From: Candidatus Micrarchaeota archaeon
Lineage (GTDB): Archaea; Micrarchaeota; Micrarchaeia; Micrarchaeales; CABMGC01
Length of the DNA stretch: 64,000 nucleotides
Assembly: GCA_021817325.1 (NCBI GenBank)
Contig: JAKAVK010000014.1
Coordinates: 8,678 to 72,677 of the forward strand
Direction: 5' to 3'
Below are positions 52,650-64,000 of the stretch, in pieces. The notes under the pieces are model-generated. The model ran no database searches, was not told the origin of the DNA, and saw nothing but the letters and a program-made list of their open reading frames with translations. How positions within the stretch are numbered: the stretch's first letter is position 1; each line of letters begins with the position of its first letter. The position numbers and the translations under genes were made by a program.

Positions 52650-52753
52650 CGGGGCCGACGGGATTTTCATATATATCAAATATGCAGGATATTTTGAACC
52701 CGTGACCATCACCTTAGGACGGTGCTGCTCTATCCAAGCTGAGCTACGGCCCC
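52650..52753 (-). tRNA. tRNA-Arg(CCT) with a 29-nt intron at position 59/60 (52664-52692)
   Basis: GGGGCCG/CGGCCCC acceptor stem; D-arm GCTC..GAGC; anticodon loop GT-CCT-AA; T-stem ACGGG/CCCGT; removing the intron restores TTCAAAT; BHB motif present. Confidence 0.92.
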
Positions 52754-52992: not shown

Positions 52993-54150
52993 TCATTTAG
53001 GGCATCCTCCATAAGGATGCATTTCTCTCAAAAACGGTAGTTTATCACCTACCTTCCTCCAAAATACTATATCTCCGCCAGCGGAAATCCACGCTTTAGT
53101 CATTGCATCAAGAACGAAAGAAAGATCATCATCTTCTTTTGGAGGTCTAATTACAATTTCTCGGTCACCAAATCTGATAATCTTCGAATTCTTGTCTAGT
53201 TCTTTAGCATCTGTTACTTCTTCCTTCCTTTTAACACTGGTCAGGAGTTCATACACTACTGCTCCTACTGTTGTATTGAAATAATAATCTTTCATATTCA
53301 ACACATCCTCATAGTTCAATAACCCTAATGCTATTTCTGGTTGTCTAACTGCCATTGCTAGTGCCACAGATCTGCCCATATTATCAGTCAATTTAAGTAC
53401 ATCTGGCCTATCTAAGAGTGCATATGCAACTCTTTGGTGGTGCCAGACTGCAGTATGTGCTGCCGTAGATCCGTTTTCATTCTTCGCTACCAACAGAAGA
53501 GAGTTAGATAATATGCCATTTGCAATTTTAGGATGTCTCCATATTATAGCATCCAATAGTGTTTCTCCGTATCCATTTATTGTCATTGAAATAAGTTCAA
53601 AGTTGTTTAGTGCTTCTACAGCAACATTCTCATGTCTAATTGCAAAAAAAGCAATTGGCGGTCTAACACCAGGTAATGTTCGGAATGCAAGATTATTATC
53701 TCTAATAACTTCATAGGCAAGTTCCTCGTGTTTCATTATGTCATGTATCATTGGCAGTTCGTTAGTTTCTCTGTACCTACCGAAAAAATCCAAATCTCTA
53801 TGATATAGGGCTGCACGTGCAGCAGATAAATATAAACGTGCAGCTGTATTACCAAATCTTGCGTCATCCGCTTCAAGTATCGGCAACCTGGGGTTATCTC
53901 CAAAAATACTTATTGCAGCGTGTTCGTTAGACCTAACAAGCTCTAATAGTATTGTGCTGTCTCTATCCAATTCTGCAAATCCTTTTACCCATTCTTCGTC
54001 TCTCTCTGAACCAATCTTTTCGTTTTGTACTCTTGTCCAGAAAAAATCAGCGAGTCTGCCACCTGCAATTAAAACTATTTTCTGAGCAGTTTCTTTTTCT
54101 ATATTTGCAAGATTAACTCCCCCAAGTCTCAATTTCAGATTCATTTTCAC
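52993..54150 (-). CDS. Ankyrin-repeat protein
   Basis: Repeats of ~33-35 aa: NGYGETLLDAII, KNENGSTAAHTAV, TDNMGRSVALAMA, KDYYFNTTVGAVV. Confidence 0.75.
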   Translation of the reverse strand: MKMNLKLRLGGVNLANIEKETAQKIVLIAGGRLADFFWTRVQNEKIGSERDEEWVKGFAELDRDSTILLELVRSNEHAAISIFGDNPRLPILEADDARFGNTAARLYLSAARAALYHRDLDFFGRYRETNELPMIHDIMKHEELAYEVIRDNNLAFRTLPGVRPPIAFFAIRHENVAVEALNNFELISMTINGYGETLLDAIIWRHPKIANGILSNSLLLVAKNENGSTAAHTAVWHHQRVAYALLDRPDVLKLTDNMGRSVALAMAVRQPEIALGLLNYEDVLNMKDYYFNTTVGAVVYELLTSVKRKEEVTDAKELDKNSKIIRFGDREIVIRPPKEDDDLSFVLDAMTKAWISAGGDIVFWRKVGDKLPFLREMHPYGGCPK

Positions 54151-54161
54151 ACCTACAAAGA

Positions 54162-55793
54162 TTAGTTGTCTTTACGTAATTCGAAATCGTTTCTATTCAC
54201 AGGGCATGTCATGCACCTTGGTCCTCCACCGCCTTTTATTAAGTCTGGCATATTGACTTCTATGACTTCTACTCCTTCTTCTACAAGCCGTCCTTTTGTT
54301 TTTGTATTTCCTTCAGCTGCAATAACTTTATTGTTATCTATTGCAACAACATTGCAACCTAGAGAGATCTGCTCCTTAGGATCTGCCTCTATCACCCTAA
54401 ATTGCATTTCTGTCTTTAGCCAATGGAGAAACTTAGGAGGCAGTCTTCCGGTATCTGCAAGTGCCTTTCTTTTCCCCACAAGAGTAAACAGAACATCTAA
54501 GTGCAATTCATCATGCTTGACTCCTACAAACAGATAGGATTTGAATTTGTCAGCAAGCTCGTAAAATCCCTCCAAATTTGTGCGGGCTCCAATCCCCACC
54601 ACAACTGTAGACTCATTTAGCAGAGTCACATCTCCACCTTCAATTAAAGAACCTTTTCCCGATATCTTTACAAAATCTCTAACAACTTTCTCTATGCCTT
54701 CTGCCTCATAAGCTCTGTTCTCCATTGCCATTTTGCCAATGACAAAAACATTGCCTATCGCAAATCCGGGATCCCTGGTGAATATGCCTGCCTTTCCGGC
54801 TTCGTTACTGTATCCATTTGAAAATGTAACCTTAACACCATTGTCTCTTAGTGCCTCTACAAAATCTCTGTGTTGTTTGATATATGCTATTCTGTCTGTT
54901 ATGGTCTCTGCCGCCTTTGAAACTTCGTTGTTCGGATAGCCTTGCCCTTTTATCGGGGGCGTAATACTTACTATTACCTCACTAAGCCTTTGCCACTCGC
55001 TGTTCACTAAAACTGGCAATGCCAATCTGCTCTCAGTAATGGCCTTTTGGAAATAGACGTACGGAACTGTTTCGCGCACGTGAAATCCTGTTCCGACATA
55101 GCCTAACAGCGTCGCTCTTTGCATCTTGCTTATATGTCCGGCTGGGATCGCAACCTCCGGAATCGCCGGGTCCAGTAACATGTTGCCAGTTATTATCGGA
55201 GTTGCGCCATTGGCAAGCTTATTCTGTTGCATGACACCGTCTGAGGGCATATGTTTGCGCCTCAGGCTCTTCTCAAAGACCACAAGACTTCTCTCTGTAT
55301 GCGCGTATGTCAACCTCATTCCGGATTCAAACAGTGCTGCATAGTTTGCATTTTTCTGTAGTGGCACATCTAAAGATACAGATAGAGTTGCTTTATCATA
55401 ATGAATTGCAATCAGTTCTGCTGCCTTTAATGCTACTAGGATGTCAACAGTTGCAGGGATGCCACGAAGATCCATAGCTAATGTGTGAATAAATGGATTG
55501 TTGGCCCTGCTTTTATCAGAAGTAAGCTTGATTTCTCTTGATGGCGTAAAACTAAGCCTCGAGGCGTTCTCCCCTGCAAAAACATTAAATTTGTAGGATG
55601 TGCCATCGTGAACCACATCTACCGAAGTTACGTCCCCGGAAGACGAAGAAACGACCCTATTACGAACTCCTGGAAATTCAGCGAACCGGGCCAAAATTTC
55701 TTCCTTTGTTGGTTTTTGGCGTCTGCCTTCATGCATGTCAAAAATCGCTACTATATTGCGGGGTGCCTGCGAGCGCTGCATCTCCTTCTCCAT
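54162..55793 (-). CDS. Amidinotransferase/DDAH-like (pentein) domain fused to a ~270-aa uncharacterised N-terminal region
   Basis: SEWQRLSEV, FTRD, IEGGDV, GARTN, LHLD, GGGPRCMTCP (complete Cys-His-Asp/Glu set). Confidence 0.85.
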   Translation of the reverse strand: MEKEMQRSQAPRNIVAIFDMHEGRRQKPTKEEILARFAEFPGVRNRVVSSSSGDVTSVDVVHDGTSYKFNVFAGENASRLSFTPSREIKLTSDKSRANNPFIHTLAMDLRGIPATVDILVALKAAELIAIHYDKATLSVSLDVPLQKNANYAALFESGMRLTYAHTERSLVVFEKSLRRKHMPSDGVMQQNKLANGATPIITGNMLLDPAIPEVAIPAGHISKMQRATLLGYVGTGFHVRETVPYVYFQKAITESRLALPVLVNSEWQRLSEVIVSITPPIKGQGYPNNEVSKAAETITDRIAYIKQHRDFVEALRDNGVKVTFSNGYSNEAGKAGIFTRDPGFAIGNVFVIGKMAMENRAYEAEGIEKVVRDFVKISGKGSLIEGGDVTLLNESTVVVGIGARTNLEGFYELADKFKSYLFVGVKHDELHLDVLFTLVGKRKALADTGRLPPKFLHWLKTEMQFRVIEADPKEQISLGCNVVAIDNNKVIAAEGNTKTKGRLVEEGVEVIEVNMPDLIKGGGGPRCMTCPVNRNDFELRKDN

Positions 55794-55999
55794 ATGACAA
55801 TTTCTCCCTTTCCTGATATTTAAACGTTGTTATCTGTTCGATTTCACTTTATGATAATGTCTTAAAGGGTATACTTTCGGTGCTGTTTTGTACCATTTGC
55901 TACATGGTGTTAATATATGCCTGATTAGCTATGTTATTAGACGTAATAGCAGCGCTGTTAGAACGGAGAGTAACAAAACCAGAAACACAAGGTTTGCAT

Positions 56000-57421
56000 A
56001 TGATAACAAGATCCATTAATGGCAATTCCTATGCTGGACACCAGATCACTAGTAAGGAGGATGTTCTGAACCTCTATAAAGATGCGTTCCAAGCAAGGCC
56101 TATGAATGGCGACCTGCTCATGGGGCCAGAGACAGAGGTCCAGTTAGCTGATGGCAGAACAGGAATAAGCGTATATCCTTCAGGAATCAGACAGGTAATA
56201 AGCAAAATCGCGGAGCTTGACAGAAGCTGGACCCAAACCGATGATTTTGTGCTGGAGAGGATGAAAGGCGGGTGGAAGCAGACCATAGGAACAGACATGG
56301 GAGCGCTCGAATTCAGCACACCTCCAACAACATCGCGAAGCGCGGCGCTAGCCAATGTGGTTGAGGTACTGGATATCATAAAAGAAGCAGCGAGACCTTT
56401 CGGGTGGGTGATACTAGAGTATGGTCAGCAACCATTCACAAATCCGAGCCAATCAACGATAATACCAAAGGGCAGGTATTTTGCGCTTGGCGCTTTCGTT
56501 GGTCCGGAGATGTGCAAAGATTCCATAACAGCTGCCGCGCAGATACATTTCCAGCCACAGGATGTGAAAGAAGCAATTATGATGCTGGCCATACTGAACG
56601 GCGCGGCTCCAGCTGAAACTGCAATGTGTGGAAACGCAGCCGTATACAATGGCGAACCTAGCGGATACCTAGATCTAAGGCGATCCCTATTTGCAGATTT
56701 GATGATAAGAATAGATCCTGTCAGGGTCAGCGTCTTTCCCAGGGTCTCAGACATAGAGGAATTTGTTGATGTAATTCTTAAAACAAAATTCATCATGACC
56801 AAAGTTCCTGGAGAGGGGCATGAACTCGCAGAAGGATACAAAGTCGTCTCAGGTTCCCCGACACTCGAAAATTTCATCCAGAATGGAGGTACAATGTATC
56901 CAATAAAGGCGATTCGCAATGGATCATACCGGTACGAGATAGATAAGCAAGCGGGATATAATGTTGAAGCTTTGACTTCAGAGGATGTCCTCTCGCATTC
57001 CAGGACCATATGGAACTCGGCAAGACTGAACCTTACTTATGGAACTGTTGAGTGGAGGCAGCCATCCTTCCAATGCGATCAAGGTCTAGAGGCAACATAT
57101 GCCTTTGCGCAGGGGCTCTTGCTCAATCCGCAGGATGCACTGTCCAGGGTTTCAGTTTACACCGTGCAGCAGCTTAGGCAAGCTGAACAAGACGCGATAA
57201 AGGTTGGCATGAATGCAACAATAGGTGGACTCCCTATTCGTTATTACGCTGAAGACCTTGTTGCAATATCTGAGCAGGGACTGCGAAATGCAAGGCAGGA
57301 TCCAGGACCACTTGAATACTTCAAGCCAAGTCTTAGGAAATCAACAAACCCTGCAGAGATGAGCCTCGAGATATTCATTGACAAGGGTAAGGATGAATTC
57401 TTAAGAGCAATATCCAGATGA
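56000..57421 (+). CDS. Glutamate-cysteine ligase family 2 (GshA/EgtA-like carboxylate-amine ligase)
   Basis: GPETE, GALEFSTPP, GQQP, PKGRY, TAAAQIH, VEWRQ; start placed at ATG 56000 (upstream ATG 55931 possible). Confidence 0.8.
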   Translation: MITRSINGNSYAGHQITSKEDVLNLYKDAFQARPMNGDLLMGPETEVQLADGRTGISVYPSGIRQVISKIAELDRSWTQTDDFVLERMKGGWKQTIGTDMGALEFSTPPTTSRSAALANVVEVLDIIKEAARPFGWVILEYGQQPFTNPSQSTIIPKGRYFALGAFVGPEMCKDSITAAAQIHFQPQDVKEAIMMLAILNGAAPAETAMCGNAAVYNGEPSGYLDLRRSLFADLMIRIDPVRVSVFPRVSDIEEFVDVILKTKFIMTKVPGEGHELAEGYKVVSGSPTLENFIQNGGTMYPIKAIRNGSYRYEIDKQAGYNVEALTSEDVLSHSRTIWNSARLNLTYGTVEWRQPSFQCDQGLEATYAFAQGLLLNPQDALSRVSVYTVQQLRQAEQDAIKVGMNATIGGLPIRYYAEDLVAISEQGLRNARQDPGPLEYFKPSLRKSTNPAEMSLEIFIDKGKDEFLRAISR

Positions 57422-57429
57422 GCCTCACG

Positions 57430-58563
57430 CTAGAATTTCTCAAAGAGATGAGTCATTACTTCCTTTACCTTCCTGAGCTCCCTTATGCTTACATATTCAT
57501 TTGGGCCATGCACAGAGTCGTTTAGGCACCCGTAGGATACGGTTGGTATGCCTGCATTGCTGAGATACCCTCCATCATCCCCACCGTAGGCCCCGTATAT
57601 TTTCTCCATGCCTGTTATCTGCATCATCTTCATCATTATCTTTGAATTTTGATTAGACTCATATCCTGGTGTAAGGCCTACAAAATCAAGGCTTGCATCA
57701 ACGCCAAAGCGCTTACTCCATAAATTAAAGTATTTCTTGAACTCTGCAGACATCTTCTCTATTTCGTAACCCGGGGGGCTGCGCATATCAAATCCCGCAT
57801 TGAGCAACCCGGGAATTATATTATTCCCGGATCCCGATTTTATTGTCGTGATGCTGAACCTGCCGTTTATTTTTTTACCGTAAATACCACTGTATCTAGA
57901 CGTCTTTGTTCCTGCTACTTTTTCAAATTCCTGCAATTTCTGCAAAAATGGCATAGCAGACAGAATCGCATTTCTGCCCAAAAAGGGATAGCCTGCATGG
58001 GATTCTTTGCCCCTGACTGTTATAGTGCCAGACGCTACGCCACTTGTTCCTCCAATTAACCTCATTCTCCCATCCAATACTACTGCATAGTTACTTCTTA
58101 CAAGACGTCTCCTGTTTTTCATAATCCACGCTAGCCCATATTCCGACCCGACTTCTTCATCGCAAGTGTACAGAAGTTCGATGTTAACTCTGCTTCTCGA
58201 TCCGCTAGCCGCAAGCAATGAAGCTACAATATTGCCTTTATCATCAGCTGCGCCTCTACCGAACGCTTTGTCACCAGAAATATAGAGCTCGAAAGGATTC
58301 CGTCTCCATTCCTGCCTAGTGGCTGGAACAACATCAAAATGTGCATTAATTCCTAGCGTATCGTCCTTTCCATTGTCAAAATAGCCAATGACGTTAGGCC
58401 GACTATTTCCATCCTTCGCTTTTGCATGTACGATTATCGTCCTAGCTCCTGCATCGTTCAGTGCTTCTTTGAGTATCAAAGCAATCTGATCATAATTCTT
58501 CTGTTCATTGCAGTTTGTGTCTATACCCACTAATTTACTCAGAAGATCCAGATCTCTCTCCAT
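57430..58563 (-). CDS. M20 metallopeptidase, ArgE/DapE/LysK-like deacylase
   Basis: NAHFDVVP, GRGAADDKG, DEEVG, GKESHAG, VHGPNEY. Confidence 0.9.
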   Translation of the reverse strand: MERDLDLLSKLVGIDTNCNEQKNYDQIALILKEALNDAGARTIIVHAKAKDGNSRPNVIGYFDNGKDDTLGINAHFDVVPATRQEWRRNPFELYISGDKAFGRGAADDKGNIVASLLAASGSRSRVNIELLYTCDEEVGSEYGLAWIMKNRRRLVRSNYAVVLDGRMRLIGGTSGVASGTITVRGKESHAGYPFLGRNAILSAMPFLQKLQEFEKVAGTKTSRYSGIYGKKINGRFSITTIKSGSGNNIIPGLLNAGFDMRSPPGYEIEKMSAEFKKYFNLWSKRFGVDASLDFVGLTPGYESNQNSKIMMKMMQITGMEKIYGAYGGDDGGYLSNAGIPTVSYGCLNDSVHGPNEYVSIRELRKVKEVMTHLFEKF

Positions 58564-58578
58564 GACATGCCGCCCCTC

Positions 58579-59763
58579 TTATTTAAACTCCGCGGAAACT
58601 TTTTTGTAGGCCTCCCTGAATGGCACCCCACTCTCAACTAGTTTGTATGCCATAGCCGTGGCGTATAACTCTTTTGTCATTGCCTTTTTGCAGCTCTCTT
58701 TGTTCACCTTCAGTTTCGTAAAGAGCAGAGCTGCAATGCCCAGGCTCTGTTCTGTTATATCAAAGCCTTTCATTATTGGTTCCTTGGTGAGAGAGGTGTC
58801 AAGATTGTAACCTGTAGGCAGATTACCTGCTAGATTATGGATTAGAGCCTCCTGCGCGGCTACTATGTGGTAGCTTGCCCTGAGGCGCTCTAGGAAGTCA
58901 GGGTTCTTCTTGTGGGGCATCATTGAGCTCCCTGTCGTAAAGCTTTGGGGCAGCTCGTAATATCCGAATTCAGGCATGCTGAAGATTATGAGGTCCGTAG
59001 CTATCTTGTTGAGGTCCAGCATCACCTGGCACATCGCGTGCAGCAGAGTTGCTTCGAACTTGCCCCTGCTCAGCTGCGTATATATGGGATTATTCTGCAC
59101 TCTCACGAATCCCAACTCCTTTGCGGTGAACTCCCTATCCAGAGATATCGGAGAACCGTAACCTGCGCCTGTTCCAAGCGGTGATTGATCAATCAATACT
59201 AGGGAGAATTCAAGTATCTTTATGTTATCTTCCATTGACTCGATGAACGCGCCAGTCCAGAGTTTGATGGATGAAGGCATCGCCTTCCTTGTGTGGGTAT
59301 AGCCGGGAAGAATTATGCTTCCATACTTGCTTGAAAAGGCATCGGCATTCTTTATGAACAGTTTGGCAAGTCTGATCAACTCCTTAAGGTTATCCATGTA
59401 GTATAGGCGCAGCGCTACAAGCACCTGATCATTCCTTGACCTACCCGTGTGTATCTTCTTTCCTACATCCTCCAATTCTTCAGTCAAGAAATTCTCTATG
59501 GCTGTGTGTACATCCTCCTGTTCTTGCGATATTTTGAACTTACCTTGTTCGTCAAGCTTTATTATCTCATTTAGCGCTCTTATGAGCTCCTTGGCCTCTT
59601 TTTGTGTCAGTATGCCTATCTTTGCCAGCATCTTGGCATGCGCTATGGATGCAATTGCATCGTATTTGACCAATCGCGCGTCGAGAAGGTACTCCTGTCC
59701 AACTACAAAAGCCTCGACAGTCTTGTCCATCTGGTAGCCTTTATCCCACAATTTAGCTTTCAT
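58579..59763 (-). CDS. argH: Argininosuccinate lyase (short form)
   Basis: [51 protein letters not shown]. Confidence 0.95.
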
Positions 59764-61042
59764 CCTTTCCCTTTTTCTTCAGCCAGTCATAAGCAATGTG
59801 GCCTTTCATTGCTATGAAATGCGCCTTAAGCCGTATTGCATTTATGTTGATGAATCCTTGCGAATCTATTGCATTAAAGCCACCTTCAGCATCCATGCTG
59901 GAAAGCTTCTGGTCGTATAGTGGAATAGCCGCCTTTCTTCCGACTACGACAACGTTGCCTTTTATGAGCGATATAGTGACCTCACCGTCTATTGCCTCCT
60001 GGCTCTTATTGAATGCGCTCATGAGGAAGTCCATCTCTGGCGAGAACCAGAATCCGTTGTAGACTAGCTCGGCAAATTTTGGAACTAGGGAGTCGCGCAA
60101 GTGCATTACCTCTTTGTCCATGGCTATGCCTTCCAGGTCTTTGTGCGCAGCCCAGAGTATCGTGGCTCCAGGTGTCTCGTATATTCCGCGTGACTTTATT
60201 CCTATGTACCTGTTCTCTACCATGTCCACCCTGCCTATCCCGTTTGCGCTGCCTATCTCGTTAAGGTACATGAACATCTGCAATGGATCCGTTTTGGATA
60301 TTCCTGCCTTTTTATTCATGACCTTGGTAAGATTTCCATCCTTGAAGTGTATCTCGAGCAGCGTCTCCTCGTTTGGAGCGCTCTGGATCGATGATGTCCT
60401 TGAGAATACATGTTCTGGAGGTCTGAACGCAGGATCCTCCAGTATCCCCGCCTCGTGGCTTATGTGCATCAGGTTTCCATCCTCGCTGTATGGCTTTGCC
60501 GCTGTTGCCTTTACCGGTATGTCGTACTTCTTTGCGTATGCAAGCAGGTCGCTCCTTCCCTTGAACTCCGCAAGAAACTCCGGATCTCTCCAAGGCGCAA
60601 TTACCTTTATCGATGGGTTAAGTGCATAGTAGGTAAGTTCGAACCTTACCTGGTCGTTGCCCTTGCCTGTCGAGCCATGAGAAACGTACTGTGCATTCTC
60701 CTTCTTGGCTATCTCCATCTGTGCCCTTGCAAGGCACGGCCTCGCAAGCGAGGTGCCCAAGAAATACCTGCCCTCATACAGCGCGTTGCAGCGCATCGCG
60801 GGGAAGATATAACCTGTCACGAACTCCTCCTTCAGGTCAACTACATAGACCTTAGAAGCTCCGCAGCTAAGCGCCTTCTTCTCTATAGCCTGGAAATCGT
60901 CCTGCTGCCCTATCTCCCCGACAAAGCATACCACATCATAGCCCTTGTTTACAAGCCACTTTAATATCACTGATGTATCCAGACCTCCGCTATATGCCAG
61001 CACAACCTTCTTTTTCTCCACACTATCACCCTTGATTATCAT
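59753..61042 (-). CDS. argG: Argininosuccinate synthase
   Basis: [48 protein letters not shown]. Confidence 0.97.
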
Positions 61043-61081
61043 GCTACATCTTTATATTTACGTTTCTGCGGCGCTGGACCG

Positions 61082-61324
61082 TTACCTTATGTAAGATGGC
61101 ACTTCAGACGGATTATACGCATTCTTCTTATGCTTGGCAAAGTGTATTATCACGGTATTCTTCTTGTTGGTAGGGAACTGGAAGGTCAGTATAGGATTGT
61201 TCTTCTCAAGGAATTTGCTCAACTCCTTCGGTATTCCAGGGTCATCGAAGTCTATTGGAAGCTCTATCTTTCCATCTTCCTCAAGTTTCACGTACTGTTT
61301 GTTGTTTTTGTTCTTTGGCTGCAT
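61082..61324 (-). CDS. Small protein with AbrB/MazE-like N-terminus
   Basis: YVKLEEDGKIELP resembles the swapped-hairpin start; sits in the arg operon. Confidence 0.45.
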   Translation of the reverse strand: MQPKNKNNKQYVKLEEDGKIELPIDFDDPGIPKELSKFLEKNNPILTFQFPTNKKNTVIIHFAKHKKNAYNPSEVPSYIR

Positions 61325-61453
61325 CTGCTCACCTGATCCTATTGCCTTCCATATACTAATTGGCGCGAACCGGTATATAAAGGATATGGCATATTTGTTA
61401 TAAAATTAGCCTAATTTGTCTCATTTGAAACGTAATAACCCGAGCCAGTTTTG

Positions 61454-62023
61454 TTATCTCCTGAATACATCATTGAAAACCATCGTTCTGTAGGCCTCTA
61501 TATCCAGTACAAATGCGCGTCTGCCGGTAGGGTCTTGCAACACAAGTTCCATTTCAAGAACGTTCTTGAGAGGCACTTCAACAAAGCCTTGCTTCTTTAT
61601 CAGGTCCGCTCCTCCGCTATTCTCGTTCTTTATCATAACCACCGTTGCATGCGGATCTGTGTCAAATATAGAAGATATCACTGCATCTGACATGCTGGTG
61701 TATATGCCCATGCCTCTGTAAGCGCCATCTACAACTACGGAGCGCATTTCGTAGCATCCTGGCCACTTGACAACTGCCATGTGCGCGACAACGGCTGGTA
61801 TGGCGCTGTCAATTGCTACAAACGAGCTTCCGTTGCGTATCCATTGGCTAACCTGCTGGTTGCTCACCTTCAGCACCGCACCGGATCTCCTGCTCTCCCT
61901 ATTCACCAAGTCCAATATTGCAGGCGCATCGCAATCAAGCGCCCTTGACAGCGTTATGCTCCCCCCACAAGATGCTATCCTGTCGATCTGCGGCCCATGG
62001 GGGCTCCTGAAATTCAATAGCAT
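61454..62023 (-). CDS. GNAT N-acetyltransferase, short ArgA-like
   Basis: RALDCDAPAILDLVN, EMRSVVVDGAYRGMGI (acetyl-CoA motif A), KKQGF; heads the argG-argH operon. Confidence 0.8.
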   Translation of the reverse strand: MLLNFRSPHGPQIDRIASCGGSITLSRALDCDAPAILDLVNRESRRSGAVLKVSNQQVSQWIRNGSSFVAIDSAIPAVVAHMAVVKWPGCYEMRSVVVDGAYRGMGIYTSMSDAVISSIFDTDPHATVVMIKNENSGGADLIKKQGFVEVPLKNVLEMELVLQDPTGRRAFVLDIEAYRTMVFNDVFRR

Positions 62024-62066
62024 GCACTCGCATTATTGGTTTATTTTTAGGTATATTAATCATGCG

Positions 62067-62081
62067 TTGTAATTAATACAA
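62067..62081. promoter_or_regulatory. 15-bp palindromic operator TTGTA-ATTAA-TACAA
   Basis: Inverted repeat TTGTA/TACAA with an AT-only spacer, in the divergent promoter between the GNAT gene and the ACT regulator. Confidence 0.55.
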
Positions 62082-62162
62082 GATGCAACCTTGAAGTCTC
62101 ATTTGATACATGTCTATTGTAAAATGAACGAATGGTTAATAAGCTTTTAAGGCAACCTGTAA

Positions 62163-62765
62163 ATGTTCAATATGAGCATCTCCGATACAGTGCGCATGTA
62201 CCTCAAGAACAAGCCATATACCCTTGAGGCAATGGAGAACGGGATCGTCAACTTCAGCGCTCTTGCAAGGCTTGTGCAGAAGGAACTTGGCATACGCAAT
62301 TATCAAGCTGTGAAGGCAGCCATACGCAGATACGCCGGGCACCTCGAGTCAGTTAAGGGCACGATAGAGGCAAGGGCCCTGAGGGTGCTCAAGGAGAACA
62401 GGATCTCGCTTTTTGACGGCGTGCACGTGATCATAAGCGACAGCGAACTTGAGATAGAGAACGATGCAAAGGTAAAGATAGAAAGGTATTGGGTATACCT
62501 GACAAGGAAGGACGTAATGAAGGGCCTTGGCAGGAAGGCGAGGGAGAGCATAGTGAAGGCGCACAGCAATTGTTCTACGATAATCGTGTACTCAGAGGAG
62601 AACCTTGAGAGCTCATCTGGAGTTGTGGCGTTCCTCACATCCCTCCTCGCTGAACAGAACATAAACGTGATGGAGTTCATCTCCTGCTACACCGAGACGA
62701 TCATAGTCGTGGGCAAGGAGGATGCGCTGCGCAGCTATGAGATACTTTCTGGCATAGTTAAGTAG
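62163..62765 (+). CDS. Archaeal HTH-like plus ACT-domain amino-acid-sensing regulator
   Basis: GIVNFSALAR...AVKAAIRRY N-terminus; ACT motif SGVVAFLTSLLAEQNINVMEFISCYTETIIVV. Confidence 0.85.
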   Translation: MFNMSISDTVRMYLKNKPYTLEAMENGIVNFSALARLVQKELGIRNYQAVKAAIRRYAGHLESVKGTIEARALRVLKENRISLFDGVHVIISDSELEIENDAKVKIERYWVYLTRKDVMKGLGRKARESIVKAHSNCSTIIVYSEENLESSSGVVAFLTSLLAEQNINVMEFISCYTETIIVVGKEDALRSYEILSGIVK

Positions 62766-63007: not shown

Positions 63008-63406
63008 ATGCCAAAAGGATATAGTGCTTCCGAGACAAGTGTTCATTTCATGGGCTATCATTTTGTCTGGTGTCCGAAGTATAGAAGAAAGGTATTGGTT
63101 GGTAAAGTGGAACAACGACTAAAGGAACTGATAAAGGAAAAGGCAGAACGATTAGAGTGTAAAGTCCTTGCACTTGAAGTCATGCCAGACCACGTTCATC
63201 TCTTCATAGAAGGCAAACCTCTCCAGACACCGAACTACATAATCGGGCAGATAAAGGGATACACCTCTCATCAACTAAGGGAAGAATTCGCAGACCTGCG
63301 ACTAAAACTTCCGACACTGTGGACAAGGAGTTATTTTGTGTCAACACATGGGCATATTTCAGATGCTCTAATCAAGAAATACATAGATGAACAAAAGGGG
63401 ATGTAA
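63008..63406 (+). CDS. tnpA: IS200/IS605 Y1 (HUH) transposase TnpA
   Basis: YHFVWCPKYRRKVL, MPDHVHLF (HUH), IKGYTS, LWTRSYFVST, KYIDEQ (catalytic Tyr). Confidence 0.97.
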   Translation: MPKGYSASETSVHFMGYHFVWCPKYRRKVLVGKVEQRLKELIKEKAERLECKVLALEVMPDHVHLFIEGKPLQTPNYIIGQIKGYTSHQLREEFADLRLKLPTLWTRSYFVSTHGHISDALIKKYIDEQKGM

Positions 63407-63651
63407 TGAAAAAGAACCTGCTTTTATTGGCTCTCATAGGGATTGTCCTAATTGTTATTGGAATCTATCTGGTTCAGGCTGATTATGGGTCTTGCCCTGC
63501 ACAAACTACAAACACAGGTTGTTACCATATCTTATTTGGTTTCTTACCGATGTCTCCAACAGGGTGGTTATTGATAATCATCGGTATAATTCTAAATATA
63601 CGCAGTATCTTGATTGATTATATTGTATCAAAAGAGAAGAGGAAGAGATAA
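63406..63651 (+). CDS. Small two-TM membrane protein carried inside the IS
   Basis: 81 aa: TM - loop with two Cys - TM - basic tail; start and stop overlap tnpA and tnpB by one base. Confidence 0.7.
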   Translation: MKKNLLLLALIGIVLIVIGIYLVQADYGSCPAQTTNTGCYHILFGFLPMSPTGWLLIIIGIILNIRSILIDYIVSKEKRKR

Positions 63652-64000
63652 TGGAAGTGGCAAGAGCTTATAAGTTCAGAATCTACCCTGATGCCACAAG
63701 GCAGGAGGAGATAGATGAACGTCTAATCCTTGCACAGCAATTCTACAACAAGATTCTTGAGAAGTCAATCGAATCCCATAAAAAAGGAAAGACAAAGGTT
63801 TCGATGGCTCAGTTCAACAGGTTTGTAAAAGAGATAATCCGAGAAGACAAGAAATACCTAAAACTCTATTCGCAGACAAGATGTGAGATAGAATTCAGGC
63901 TTCTCAAGGCATACCAGAACTTCTTCAGAAGAATCAAGGAAGGAAACAAGAAGGCAGGGTTCCCAAGATTCAGGTCAAGGGAAAGGTACAAGTCAATAAC
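63651..64000 (+). CDS. tnpB: RNA-guided endonuclease TnpB, N-terminal part (runs off the window)
   Basis: Manual translation from ATG 63651: MEVARAYKFRIYPD...AYQNFFRRIKEGNKKAGFPRFRS. Confidence 0.95.
   Translation, partial: MEVARAYKFRIYPDATRQEEIDERLILAQQFYNKILEKSIESHKKGKTKVSMAQFNRFVKEIIREDKKYLKLYSQTRCEIEFRLLKAYQNFFRRIKEGNKKAGFPRFRSRERYKSI

Follow-up and report, generated by a model that had tools for sequence, protein, structure and literature searches.

Several described systems resemble the locus reported here in part. In canonical arginine synthesis, the terminal steps are carried out by the synthase (ArgG) and the lyase (ArgH) of argininosuccinate; the arginine deiminase (ADI) pathway, arcA-arcB-arcC, runs in the opposite direction. 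In animals, dimethylarginine dimethylaminohydrolase (DDAH), argininosuccinate synthase and the lyase together recycle methylarginine and citrulline to arginine, and a bacterial DDAH is known from Pseudomonas aeruginosa. The arginine succinyltransferase (AST) pathway opens with the AstA acyltransferase and the AstB pentein dihydrolase, which are followed by the AstC and AstD steps. The cyanobacterial ornithine-ammonia cycle is built around the arginine dihydrolase ArgZ/AgrE (PMC8092223). Here we describe a locus of a Candidatus Micrarchaeota archaeon at positions 52,993 to 62,765 of a stretch of 64,000 nucleotides (the window; GenBank assembly GCA_021817325.1, contig JAKAVK010000014.1, positions 8,678 to 72,677 of the forward strand), in which argG and argH lie near the gene for a fusion of a putative GNAT-fold domain with a compact pentein domain (P0001). 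We read it as a relic ornithine/citrulline/arginine node with an ADI-type branch, to which a GCS2-family ligase gene and an ankyrin-like (Ank-like) gene have been added as unrelated cargo, and we place the probability of this reading at about 0.55. The locus represents known arginine metabolism in an unusual form, and no new pathway is demonstrated.

An ADI-type route has already been proposed for Micrarchaeota at the annotation level: according to PMC8407392, 13% of Micrarchaeota have ArgG/ArgH and 29% have "arginine deiminase", which is interpreted there as helping adaptation to acid. For the present analysis, whole-genome model searches were run on the 991-kb assembly (32 contigs, 90% complete), and eleven related loci were fetched and mapped by BLAST. 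Counts of slot content refer to the 10 informative loci.

The argG-argH core and the adjoining slot

Open reading frame (ORF) maps and family scans agree on nine genes at the coordinates given by an initial annotation of the window, and the gene spacings are consistent with the operon layout proposed there. On the minus strand, the gene for a 189-aa GNAT protein (61454-62023) is followed by an 80-aa conserved ORF, orf80 (61082-61324), a canonical argG (59753-61042; NF001770, 534 bits against a cut-off of 334), a short-form argH (58579-59763, 394 aa; TIGR00838, 295.8 bits, cut-off 279.5) and the gene for an M20 metallohydrolase of ArgE/DapE type (57430-58563, 377 aa; Peptidase_M20 and M20_dimer domains; TIGR01910, 197 bits, cut-off 217.6). 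The argG and argH genes overlap by 11 nt, and 15 nt separate argH from the M20 gene. On the plus strand, 139 bp from the GNAT gene and divergent from it, lies the gene for a 200-aa protein with DUF7523 and ACT_7 domains (62163-62765; Pfam ACT_7, 1.3e-08; DUF7523, 5e-08), a predicted amino-acid-sensing regulator. Beyond the M20 gene, the P0001 gene (54162-55793, minus strand, 543 aa) and the Ank-like gene (52993-54150, minus strand, 385 aa) are 11 nt apart, and the gene for a 496-aa GCS2-family carboxylate-amine ligase (55931-57421, plus strand; Pfam GCS2, 2.9e-13) diverges from the P0001 gene across 137 bp. These distances agree with two co-directional units, one being GNAT-orf80-argG-argH-M20 and the other pentein-Ank, while GCS2 is by itself on the opposite strand. 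The identical gene order was found on 16 contigs from independent assemblies, which rules out an assembly chimera; the locus is therefore real DNA.

Base composition divides the locus. The reference set of 507 long ORFs from the genome has a GC content of 0.521±0.034 and a GC content at third codon positions (GC3) of 0.627±0.074. The Ank-like, pentein, GCS2 and M20 genes are outliers, with GC3 values of 0.27, 0.40, 0.45 and 0.43 (z = -2.4 to -4.9), and the Ank-like gene is the most foreign of all (z = -4.9). The values for argH (0.55), argG (0.59), GNAT (0.56) and the ACT gene (0.68) are all within approximately 1 standard deviation of the genome. A visibly AT-richer part at 53-58.6 kb had been remarked on before; GC3 bears this out and narrows it to the four genes between the tRNA gene and argH, with a foreign block at 52.99-58.56 kb and a boundary at the M20/argH junction (~58.57 kb). 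These four genes are recent imports and the argGH core is native, so what had been described as a single island is two things of different age.

The related loci have a common backbone: the arginyl-tRNA synthetase (ArgRS) gene and the divergent ACT/DUF7523 gene, then GNAT-(orf80)-argG-short argH, a variable slot, and tRNA-Arg(CCU) followed by the gene for a 366-aa protein, DUF460, Alba and AspRS. Across the relatives, ArgG is 70-77% identical, ArgH 57-70% and the ACT/DUF7523 protein, which is divergently placed in all loci of the family, 49-82%; a GNAT gene stands beside argG in nearly all of them. A pentein occupies the slot in 7 of the 10 informative loci and belongs to one of two subfamilies, either a DDAH-like stand-alone protein of 290-336 aa (G001, G004 and G009) or the ADI-like fusion (L005, G036, L007 and this window). 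G006 and G030 have an empty slot. Gene order is argG-argH-fusion-GNAT-M20 in L005 and argG-argH-GNAT-M20-fusion in G036, and an adjacent, co-oriented GNAT gene followed by M20, overlapping or a few nt apart, is present in L005, G036, G006, G030 and G023. Three loci have a pentein without an M20 gene and three have an M20 gene without a pentein. In none of the eleven related loci are argB, argC or argD found beside argGH.

Of the four slot imports, two have functions that relatives also hold here, namely the pentein and M20; GCS2 and the Ank-like gene are missing from every related locus and are strain-specific cargo. The initial annotation had treated the GCS2 and "amidinotransferase" genes as a pair and asked whether both are co-conserved with argGH. 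The pentein is (7 of 10 loci, in L005 within the operon itself), and GCS2 is not. Because GCS2 is confined to the lineage of this strain and the pentein recurs without it, the two do not form a conserved unit.

In a set of 60 relatives, argG is found in 7 of the genus's 12 genomes (counting that of the window), in five further genera of the family, and in 0 of 24 genomes of the other two families. The fusion is rare and occurs in only one other genus (G036). In one genus of the family, argG is broken by two TGA stops (G017:C18:1383-2529), as would be expected if some lineages are still losing the module.

ArgG and ArgH both score above their equivalog cut-offs, as in the canonical pathway. ArgH differs in being short by ~70 C-terminal residues, which comprise most of Pfam ASL_C2: it covers positions 10-386 of the 455 positions of the TIGR00838 profile and its alignment with duck delta-crystallin (468 residues) spans residues 28-391 of that protein. 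It belongs to a clade of short ArgH proteins (386-411 aa, 51-63% identical) from ~30 metagenomic loci (L044-L073), some of which lie inside complete argG-argF-argH...argB-argD-argC operons. Since short forms occur in complete operons, the truncation appears compatible with function. These short-ArgH operons often carry a divergent ACT/DUF7523-like gene upstream of argG (homologs 27-58% identical). Because the clade sits in complete operons with the same type of ACT/DUF7523 gene, the Micrarchaeota gene set looks like a cut-down version of a canonical arg operon.

Two further components resemble canonical ones. The profile of 13 locus GNATs, orthologs and paralogs together, matches phosphinothricin acetyltransferases and the short N-acetylglutamate synthase of Mycobacterium tuberculosis (5yge/5yo2), and among the members are several with matches to PRK07922, to ArgA models and to the GNAT portion of fused ArgH-ArgA proteins. 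The nearest families are thus amino-acid N-alpha-acetyltransferases, and the earlier label "ArgA-like", a matter of sequence resemblance, is a fair one. The M20 protein is of ArgE/DapE type, but unlike a canonical component it was imported recently, and the M20 proteins of relatives are not its orthologs. The presence of a guanidino hydrolase in or beside the operon is a further departure from the canonical arrangement.

Remaining arginine enzymes and the pentein fusion

From the genes missing in the window, the initial annotation had concluded that this is not the standard pathway. Genome-wide searches agree for argB and argC, and the same is true of carB. With the ArgB model TIGR00761, only a carbamate-kinase-like gene is found (31.6 bits at the genome level and 48.9 bits at the protein level, cut-off 151.3), and phmmer searches with two ArgB proteins yield 20 bits only. 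The sole match to the ArgC model TIGR01850 is asd, which encodes aspartate-semialdehyde dehydrogenase (57.6 bits, cut-off 233.6), and the CarB model TIGR01369 has no match in the genome. All 14 control genomes were matched by the argB, argC and carB models. The ArgB and ArgC models, which also matched the Sulfolobus control, detect no LysZ or LysY; no LysW or ArgX model was run. Searches by phmmer with the ArgB, ArgC and ArgD proteins of related metagenomic operons agree with these results. With neither argB/LysZ nor argC/LysY, both routes from glutamate to ornithine, acetyl and LysW, are therefore closed to the organism on the evidence of the assembly, and no complete canonical pathway was found.

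The enzymes that surround citrulline are retained. Ornithine transcarbamylase (OTC), which lies outside the window and by its sequence could be anabolic or catabolic, is present at C11:86240-87154 (334 bits, cut-off 281), so the absence of arg genes noted earlier does not extend to this step. The carbamate-kinase-like gene is located at C15:12912-13784. Given OTC and this gene elsewhere in the genome, an ordinary citrulline node and an ADI-type explanation are both available. At C11:85557-87154 (minus strand), the OTC gene shares 1 base with the start of pyrH, the gene for a UMP kinase of archaeal type, and aspartate transcarbamylase (ATCase) is encoded in the genome without a carbamoyl-phosphate synthetase (CPS). 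Together, these two observations hint that OTC may supply carbamoyl phosphate to pyrimidine metabolism or share it. A class-III aminotransferase (C2:54681-56084, minus strand) could connect ornithine with glutamate semialdehyde; it scores 293 bits with argD (cut-off 410) and 521 bits with PRK05769 ("acetylornithine aminotransferase family"; cut-off 552). P0001 is the sole pentein of the genome.

P0001 consists of a predicted GNAT-fold N-terminal domain (approximately residues 1-255) and a compact ADI/DDAH-like pentein domain (approximately residues 300-534; Pfam ADI, 1.3e-29; DDAH_eukar, 2.4e-24). A structure model built from 8 sequences (mean predicted local distance difference test score, pLDDT, 70.6) was used in preference to an earlier model from 4 sequences (pLDDT 53). 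In Foldseek searches this model retrieves DDAH, ADI and the amidinotransferase AGAT with a probability of 1.0, the matches being dominated by the pentein domain. By sequence and modeled structure, the C-terminal domain is assigned to the pentein superfamily of guanidino-group-modifying enzymes. The nucleophile Cys527 and residues His431, Glu385, Asp341, Arg360 and Arg404 are invariant in eight homologs and align, respectively, to C249, H162, E114, D66, R85 and R132 of P. aeruginosa DDAH. By their alignment to Arg85 and Arg132 of that enzyme, the two invariant arginines are predicted to bind the substrate carboxylate. The motifs FTRDP, HLDVLFT and GGGGPRCMTCP and the best family scores are ADI-like, whereas the size of the domain and its best structural overlap in the model are DDAH-like (Foldseek template-modeling score, TM, 0.80 to P. 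aeruginosa DDAH, 1h70). Function as an ADI is possible.

The GNAT fold of the N-terminal domain is indicated by the homolog L011, which matches Pfam GNAT at 23.4 bits (cut-off 20.7), and by the domain profile, which matches PaiA (1tiq) at E = 4e-4 with further GNATs below it; hhalign comparison of the fusion N-domain with the locus GNATs was not significant. In both P0001 and its closest relative (P0004), the acetyl-CoA-loop segment (R/Q-x-x-G-x-G/A) is deleted, and because of this deletion the N-terminal domain is probably not catalytic. Full-length relatives of the fusion number 3 among 5.8 billion protein clusters, plus 4 in bacterial metagenome-assembled genomes: L008, L009 and L010 from Calditrichia and L011 from Solirubrobacterales. 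The bacterial proteins (565-584 aa) are 29-37% identical to the archaeal one and have an apparently intact GNAT domain that keeps an R-G-x-G-type loop. Their neighborhoods (FTHFS, M1 peptidase, AsnB-like and polysaccharide genes) contain no conserved partner. The GNAT/mini-ADI fusion is a rare, uncharacterized family with ~10 known members.

With the ADI pathway the locus and genome share an ADI-motif pentein, OTC, a carbamate-kinase-like gene and the lack of a CPS. They differ in that the three genes are unlinked, in that the pentein is DDAH-sized, fused to a GNAT remnant and devoid of the ADI helical insert, and in that its neighbors argG and argH serve the reverse direction. The cyanobacterial cycle likewise has a DDAH-like pentein together with OTC, ArgG and ArgH around arginine. 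P0001 also has a weak match to the Arg_dihydro model, but its 26 bits are far below the cut-off of 450, and both a CPS and an ornithine cyclodeaminase domain are lacking here.

Starting from the observed gene identities, synteny and composition, and from the absence of argB, argC and carB in the assembly, we infer the substrates, the direction of flux and the role of the regulator as follows. The native core (the HTH/ACT regulator, the ArgA-like GNAT, orf80, argG and short argH) would be what genome reduction has left of a canonical arginine operon, placed between ArgRS and tRNA-Arg(CCU), beside genes that consume arginine for translation. Because OTC, the carbamate-kinase-like enzyme, ArgG and ArgH have been kept, ornithine or citrulline from the host or from peptides could be converted to arginine, with the carbamate-kinase-like enzyme providing carbamoyl phosphate for OTC. 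The slot between argH and the tRNA gene would turn genes over while holding, in most relatives, a guanidino hydrolase of the pentein type, with arginine or a modified arginine as substrate and citrulline as product. Such a hydrolase would combine with OTC and carbamate kinase to yield ATP, carbamoyl phosphate and ammonia by an ADI-type route, and with ArgG and ArgH to provide a return path from citrulline to arginine. In this strain, the slot would recently have been refilled with a foreign M20 gene, an orphan GCS2 gene, the GNAT-remnant/mini-ADI fusion and the Ank-like gene.

Alternative explanations

Several observations weigh against a relic node with an ADI-type branch. P0001 reaches only 91.8 bits, in two partial stretches, with the arcA equivalog TIGR01078 (cut-off 489), and 57.7 and 51.7 bits with DDAH equivalogs whose cut-offs are 340 and 450. 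The carbamate-kinase-like gene is likewise below the cut-off of its equivalog (TIGR00746, arcC; 263 bits against 358). The lack of argB, argC and carB holds for an assembly that is only 90% complete. A deiminase that is co-oriented and probably co-transcribed with argG-argH, as in L005, G001 and G004, would create a futile cycle if it acted on free arginine; such a layout is more in keeping with an enzyme whose citrulline derives from a substrate other than free arginine. The relic model also gives no role, without argB and argC, to the ArgA-like GNAT, to the fusion or adjacency of GNAT and pentein, or to the GNAT-M20 pairs. For these last two reasons, an AST-like acetyl-protected route and a DDAH-type salvage of modified arginine both stay live as alternatives.

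An acyl-protected, AST-like route was one of two options raised by the initial annotation, and it survives best, although we regard it as unlikely. Here, the GNAT would acetylate arginine (or ornithine or citrulline) at its alpha-amino group, the guanidino group of the N-acetyl compound would be hydrolyzed by the pentein, and the M20 enzyme would take off the acetyl group to give citrulline or ornithine, from which ArgG and ArgH would remake arginine. Several observations speak for such a route. GNAT and pentein are fused in both archaeal and bacterial proteins, the bacterial ones with their loop retained; a stand-alone ArgA-like GNAT lies directly beside the pentein in L005 and G009; GNAT and M20 are adjacent and co-oriented in the five loci named above; and the GNAT family is nearest to enzymes that acetylate the alpha-amino group of amino acids. 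As in the AST pathway, an acyltransferase would be coupled to an arginine-acting pentein, and a deacylase is present at the locus. Others weigh against it. The GNAT half of the window's own fusion has decayed and lacks its acetyl-CoA-loop segment. The M20 proteins of the different loci are non-orthologous (ArgE/DapE type in the window, PepT-like in relatives), the family of the window's M20 is found mostly in housekeeping contexts, and pentein and M20 each occur in three loci without the other. Scans of the nine proteins against Pfam and NCBIfam gave no AstA or AstB family match, the acyl group would be acetyl, and the AstC and AstD steps are missing. Moreover, canonical ArgG and ArgH indicate free citrulline as the intermediate, and acetylation would cost acetyl-CoA for no evident gain.

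In a broader form of the same idea, reduced-genome symbionts such as these Micrarchaeota might carry an undescribed acetyl-protected module for arginine salvage or turnover, in which an ArgA-like GNAT, a compact pentein, in some cases fused to a GNAT, and an M20 deacylase make citrulline, ArgG and short ArgH turn it into arginine for the adjoining ArgRS and tRNA-Arg, and the HTH-ACT protein exerts control. Its substrates could be, for example, N-alpha-acetyl- or N-omega-modified arginine from host material. We offer this formulation tentatively and consider it doubtful.

The other live alternative is a DDAH-type salvage. In G001, G004 and G009, a DDAH-like pentein is encoded directly downstream of argG-argH, and a DDAH-like pentein with ArgG and ArgH would be a self-contained salvage route. 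The window's pentein also has P. aeruginosa DDAH as its best structural match in the modeled comparison. However, all scores are far below the equivalog cut-offs (88 bits against a DDAH cut-off of 450 for the relatives' short penteins), and the window enzyme has ADI-like motifs. We know of no source of methylarginine for this organism.

Two other explanations are much less probable. In the first, argB, argC, argD and argJ would lie in the unassembled 10% of the genome, and the GNAT and M20 genes would be ArgA and ArgE of an ordinary operon. The completeness of 90% leaves room for this, and ArgA-like GNAT, ArgE-type M20, OTC, ArgG and ArgH would amount to 5 of the 8 steps of the linear pathway. 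A class-III aminotransferase with 521 bits to PRK05769 is also at hand, and relatives of the short ArgH do reside in complete arg operons. Against it, argB, argC and carB are all missing together, the genome is of symbiont type and only ~1 Mb in size, the aminotransferase falls short of argD (293 bits, cut-off 410), and argB, argC and argD flank argGH in 0 of 11 related loci. For arginine synthesis in DPANN archaea, the passage in PMC8407392 names only ArgG and ArgH. Thus, we consider a complete canonical pathway very unlikely.

In the second, the AT-rich block would be a mobile element integrated site-specifically at tRNA-Arg, and its genes would have nothing to do with arginine. The foreign composition of the block, its position next to a tRNA gene and the differing slot content of relatives all suggest this. 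However, a domain scan of the slot proteins found no integrase or other mobility gene in the block, and the tRNA sequence or its end is not repeated within 52.5-64 kb, where only chance-size repeats were seen. The block also lies on the 5' side of the tRNA gene, and the imports include the same two functions, pentein and M20, that relatives hold here. An integrated element is therefore about as improbable as a hidden canonical pathway.

The other option of the initial annotation, synthesis of a guanidino or gamma-glutamyl small molecule, is the least probable of all. In it, arginine would be the donor for a pentein working as an amidinotransferase, OTC, ArgG and ArgH would regenerate the arginine, and GCS2, GNAT and M20 would tailor the product. 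In its favor, Foldseek also retrieves the amidinotransferases SxtG, AGAT and HsvA with a probability of 1.0, GCS2 diverges from the pentein gene across 137 bp, and arginine could be regenerated from ornithine with the OTC, carbamate kinase, ArgG and ArgH present. Against it, GCS2 is unique to the strain and the pentein recurs without it, the pentein is ADI-like in its motifs and best family scores and overlaps best in structure with DDAH (TM 0.80, compared with ~0.6 for amidinotransferases), bacterial pentein homologs lie in unrelated contexts, and there is neither an exporter nor any further tailoring gene.

Flanking features and significance

The tRNA gene at the edge of the slot had been annotated as tRNA-Arg, yet in the raw window neither ARAGORN nor Rfam reports any tRNA (Rfam even at E = 1). 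When the sequence at 52650-52753 (minus strand) is read directly, a perfect acceptor stem, a D arm and an anticodon loop with CCU are seen, and after deletion of 27-31 nt from the T-loop ARAGORN reports tRNA-Arg(cct). The gene thus folds as tRNA-Arg(CCU) once a T-loop intron of ~28 nt is removed, and the negative search results are false negatives caused by this intron. The same tRNA is at the equivalent position in eight related loci (L005, L007, G001, G004, G006, G009, G030 and G036), and is a fixed landmark at the edge of the variable slot. Most relatives also have the intron, and ARAGORN fails there too; the tRNA of L007 is intron-free. Such T-loop introns are consistent with the broad-specificity splicing endonuclease of ARMAN-2/Micrarchaeum (PMC3488258, PMC12397907). 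Like the intron-bearing tRNA, the presence of Alba and DUF460, of Sec61-beta in relatives and of an archaeal-type UMP kinase and Asd is in keeping with a DPANN archaeon.

The product of orf80 has orthologs in G001, G004, G008 and L005, and was found only next to argG in the closest relatives. Its C-terminal tail, Y-[DN]-P-[SA]-E-[VI]-P-S-Y-I-R, hardly varies and has arginine as its last residue. Searches of Pfam, NCBIfam and the PDB returned no match, even at E = 10 with a 5-sequence profile, and its former description as "AbrB-like" finds no support from AbrB, MazE or SpoVT families in these databases. LysW carries zinc-finger cysteines and an acidic Glu tail. As a candidate LysW, orf80 was rejected: it has no cysteines for a zinc finger, and it ends in PSYIR with no acidic Glu tail.

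Among the imported genes, M20 has its closest relatives (43-53% identical) in housekeeping contexts with no arg genes nearby, and is only 22-26% identical to the PepT-like M20 proteins of the related loci, to which it is not orthologous. Its closest homolog from a named assembly (51% identical; L040:1813-4411) is arranged tail-to-tail with a ligase-like gene of ~485 aa that has a weak ATP-grasp match, at a distance of 4 nt. This ligase-like protein was tested as a GCS2 homolog and is not homologous, so the pairing may be a coincidence or an analogous one. For GCS2 itself, a word-based search of 5.8 billion clusters found no close homolog and returned only the protein itself; an exhaustive search of 1.84 billion representative proteins found nearest representatives of ≤33% identity, all uncharacterized. 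Its nearest relative in the PDB is plant glutamate-cysteine ligase (31-32 bits). The gene previously called an ankyrin gene encodes a weak ankyrin-repeat region at residues ~185-317. All of its PDB matches are ankyrin or DARPin repeats (E = 5e-4 to 0.5), but Ank_2 reaches only 19.1 bits (cut-off 27), and with this sub-threshold support we retain the name Ank-like.

At the other end of the window, an IS200/IS605 insertion element (63008-64000, plus strand), comprising TnpA (NF033573, 142 bits), an 81-aa membrane-like passenger ORF and the start of TnpB (family match), splits the ACT gene from ArgRS and is not part of the arginine locus. The insertion is polymorphic: in the sister assembly L124, ArgRS lies directly beside the ACT gene with no such element.

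DPANN archaea are thought to live off the metabolites of their hosts, and the biosynthetic steps that they retain show what is imported. In one lineage of Micrarchaeota, the steps from ornithine and citrulline to arginine are physically tied to ArgRS and tRNA-Arg, and this lineage has repeatedly recruited a guanidino hydrolase, often along with a GNAT and M20 pair, to the same spot. If the GNAT-pentein-M20 trio acts on acylated or modified arginine, it would represent new salvage chemistry; otherwise, the locus would be a clear case of a relic pathway joined to an ADI-type branch for energy or acid resistance.

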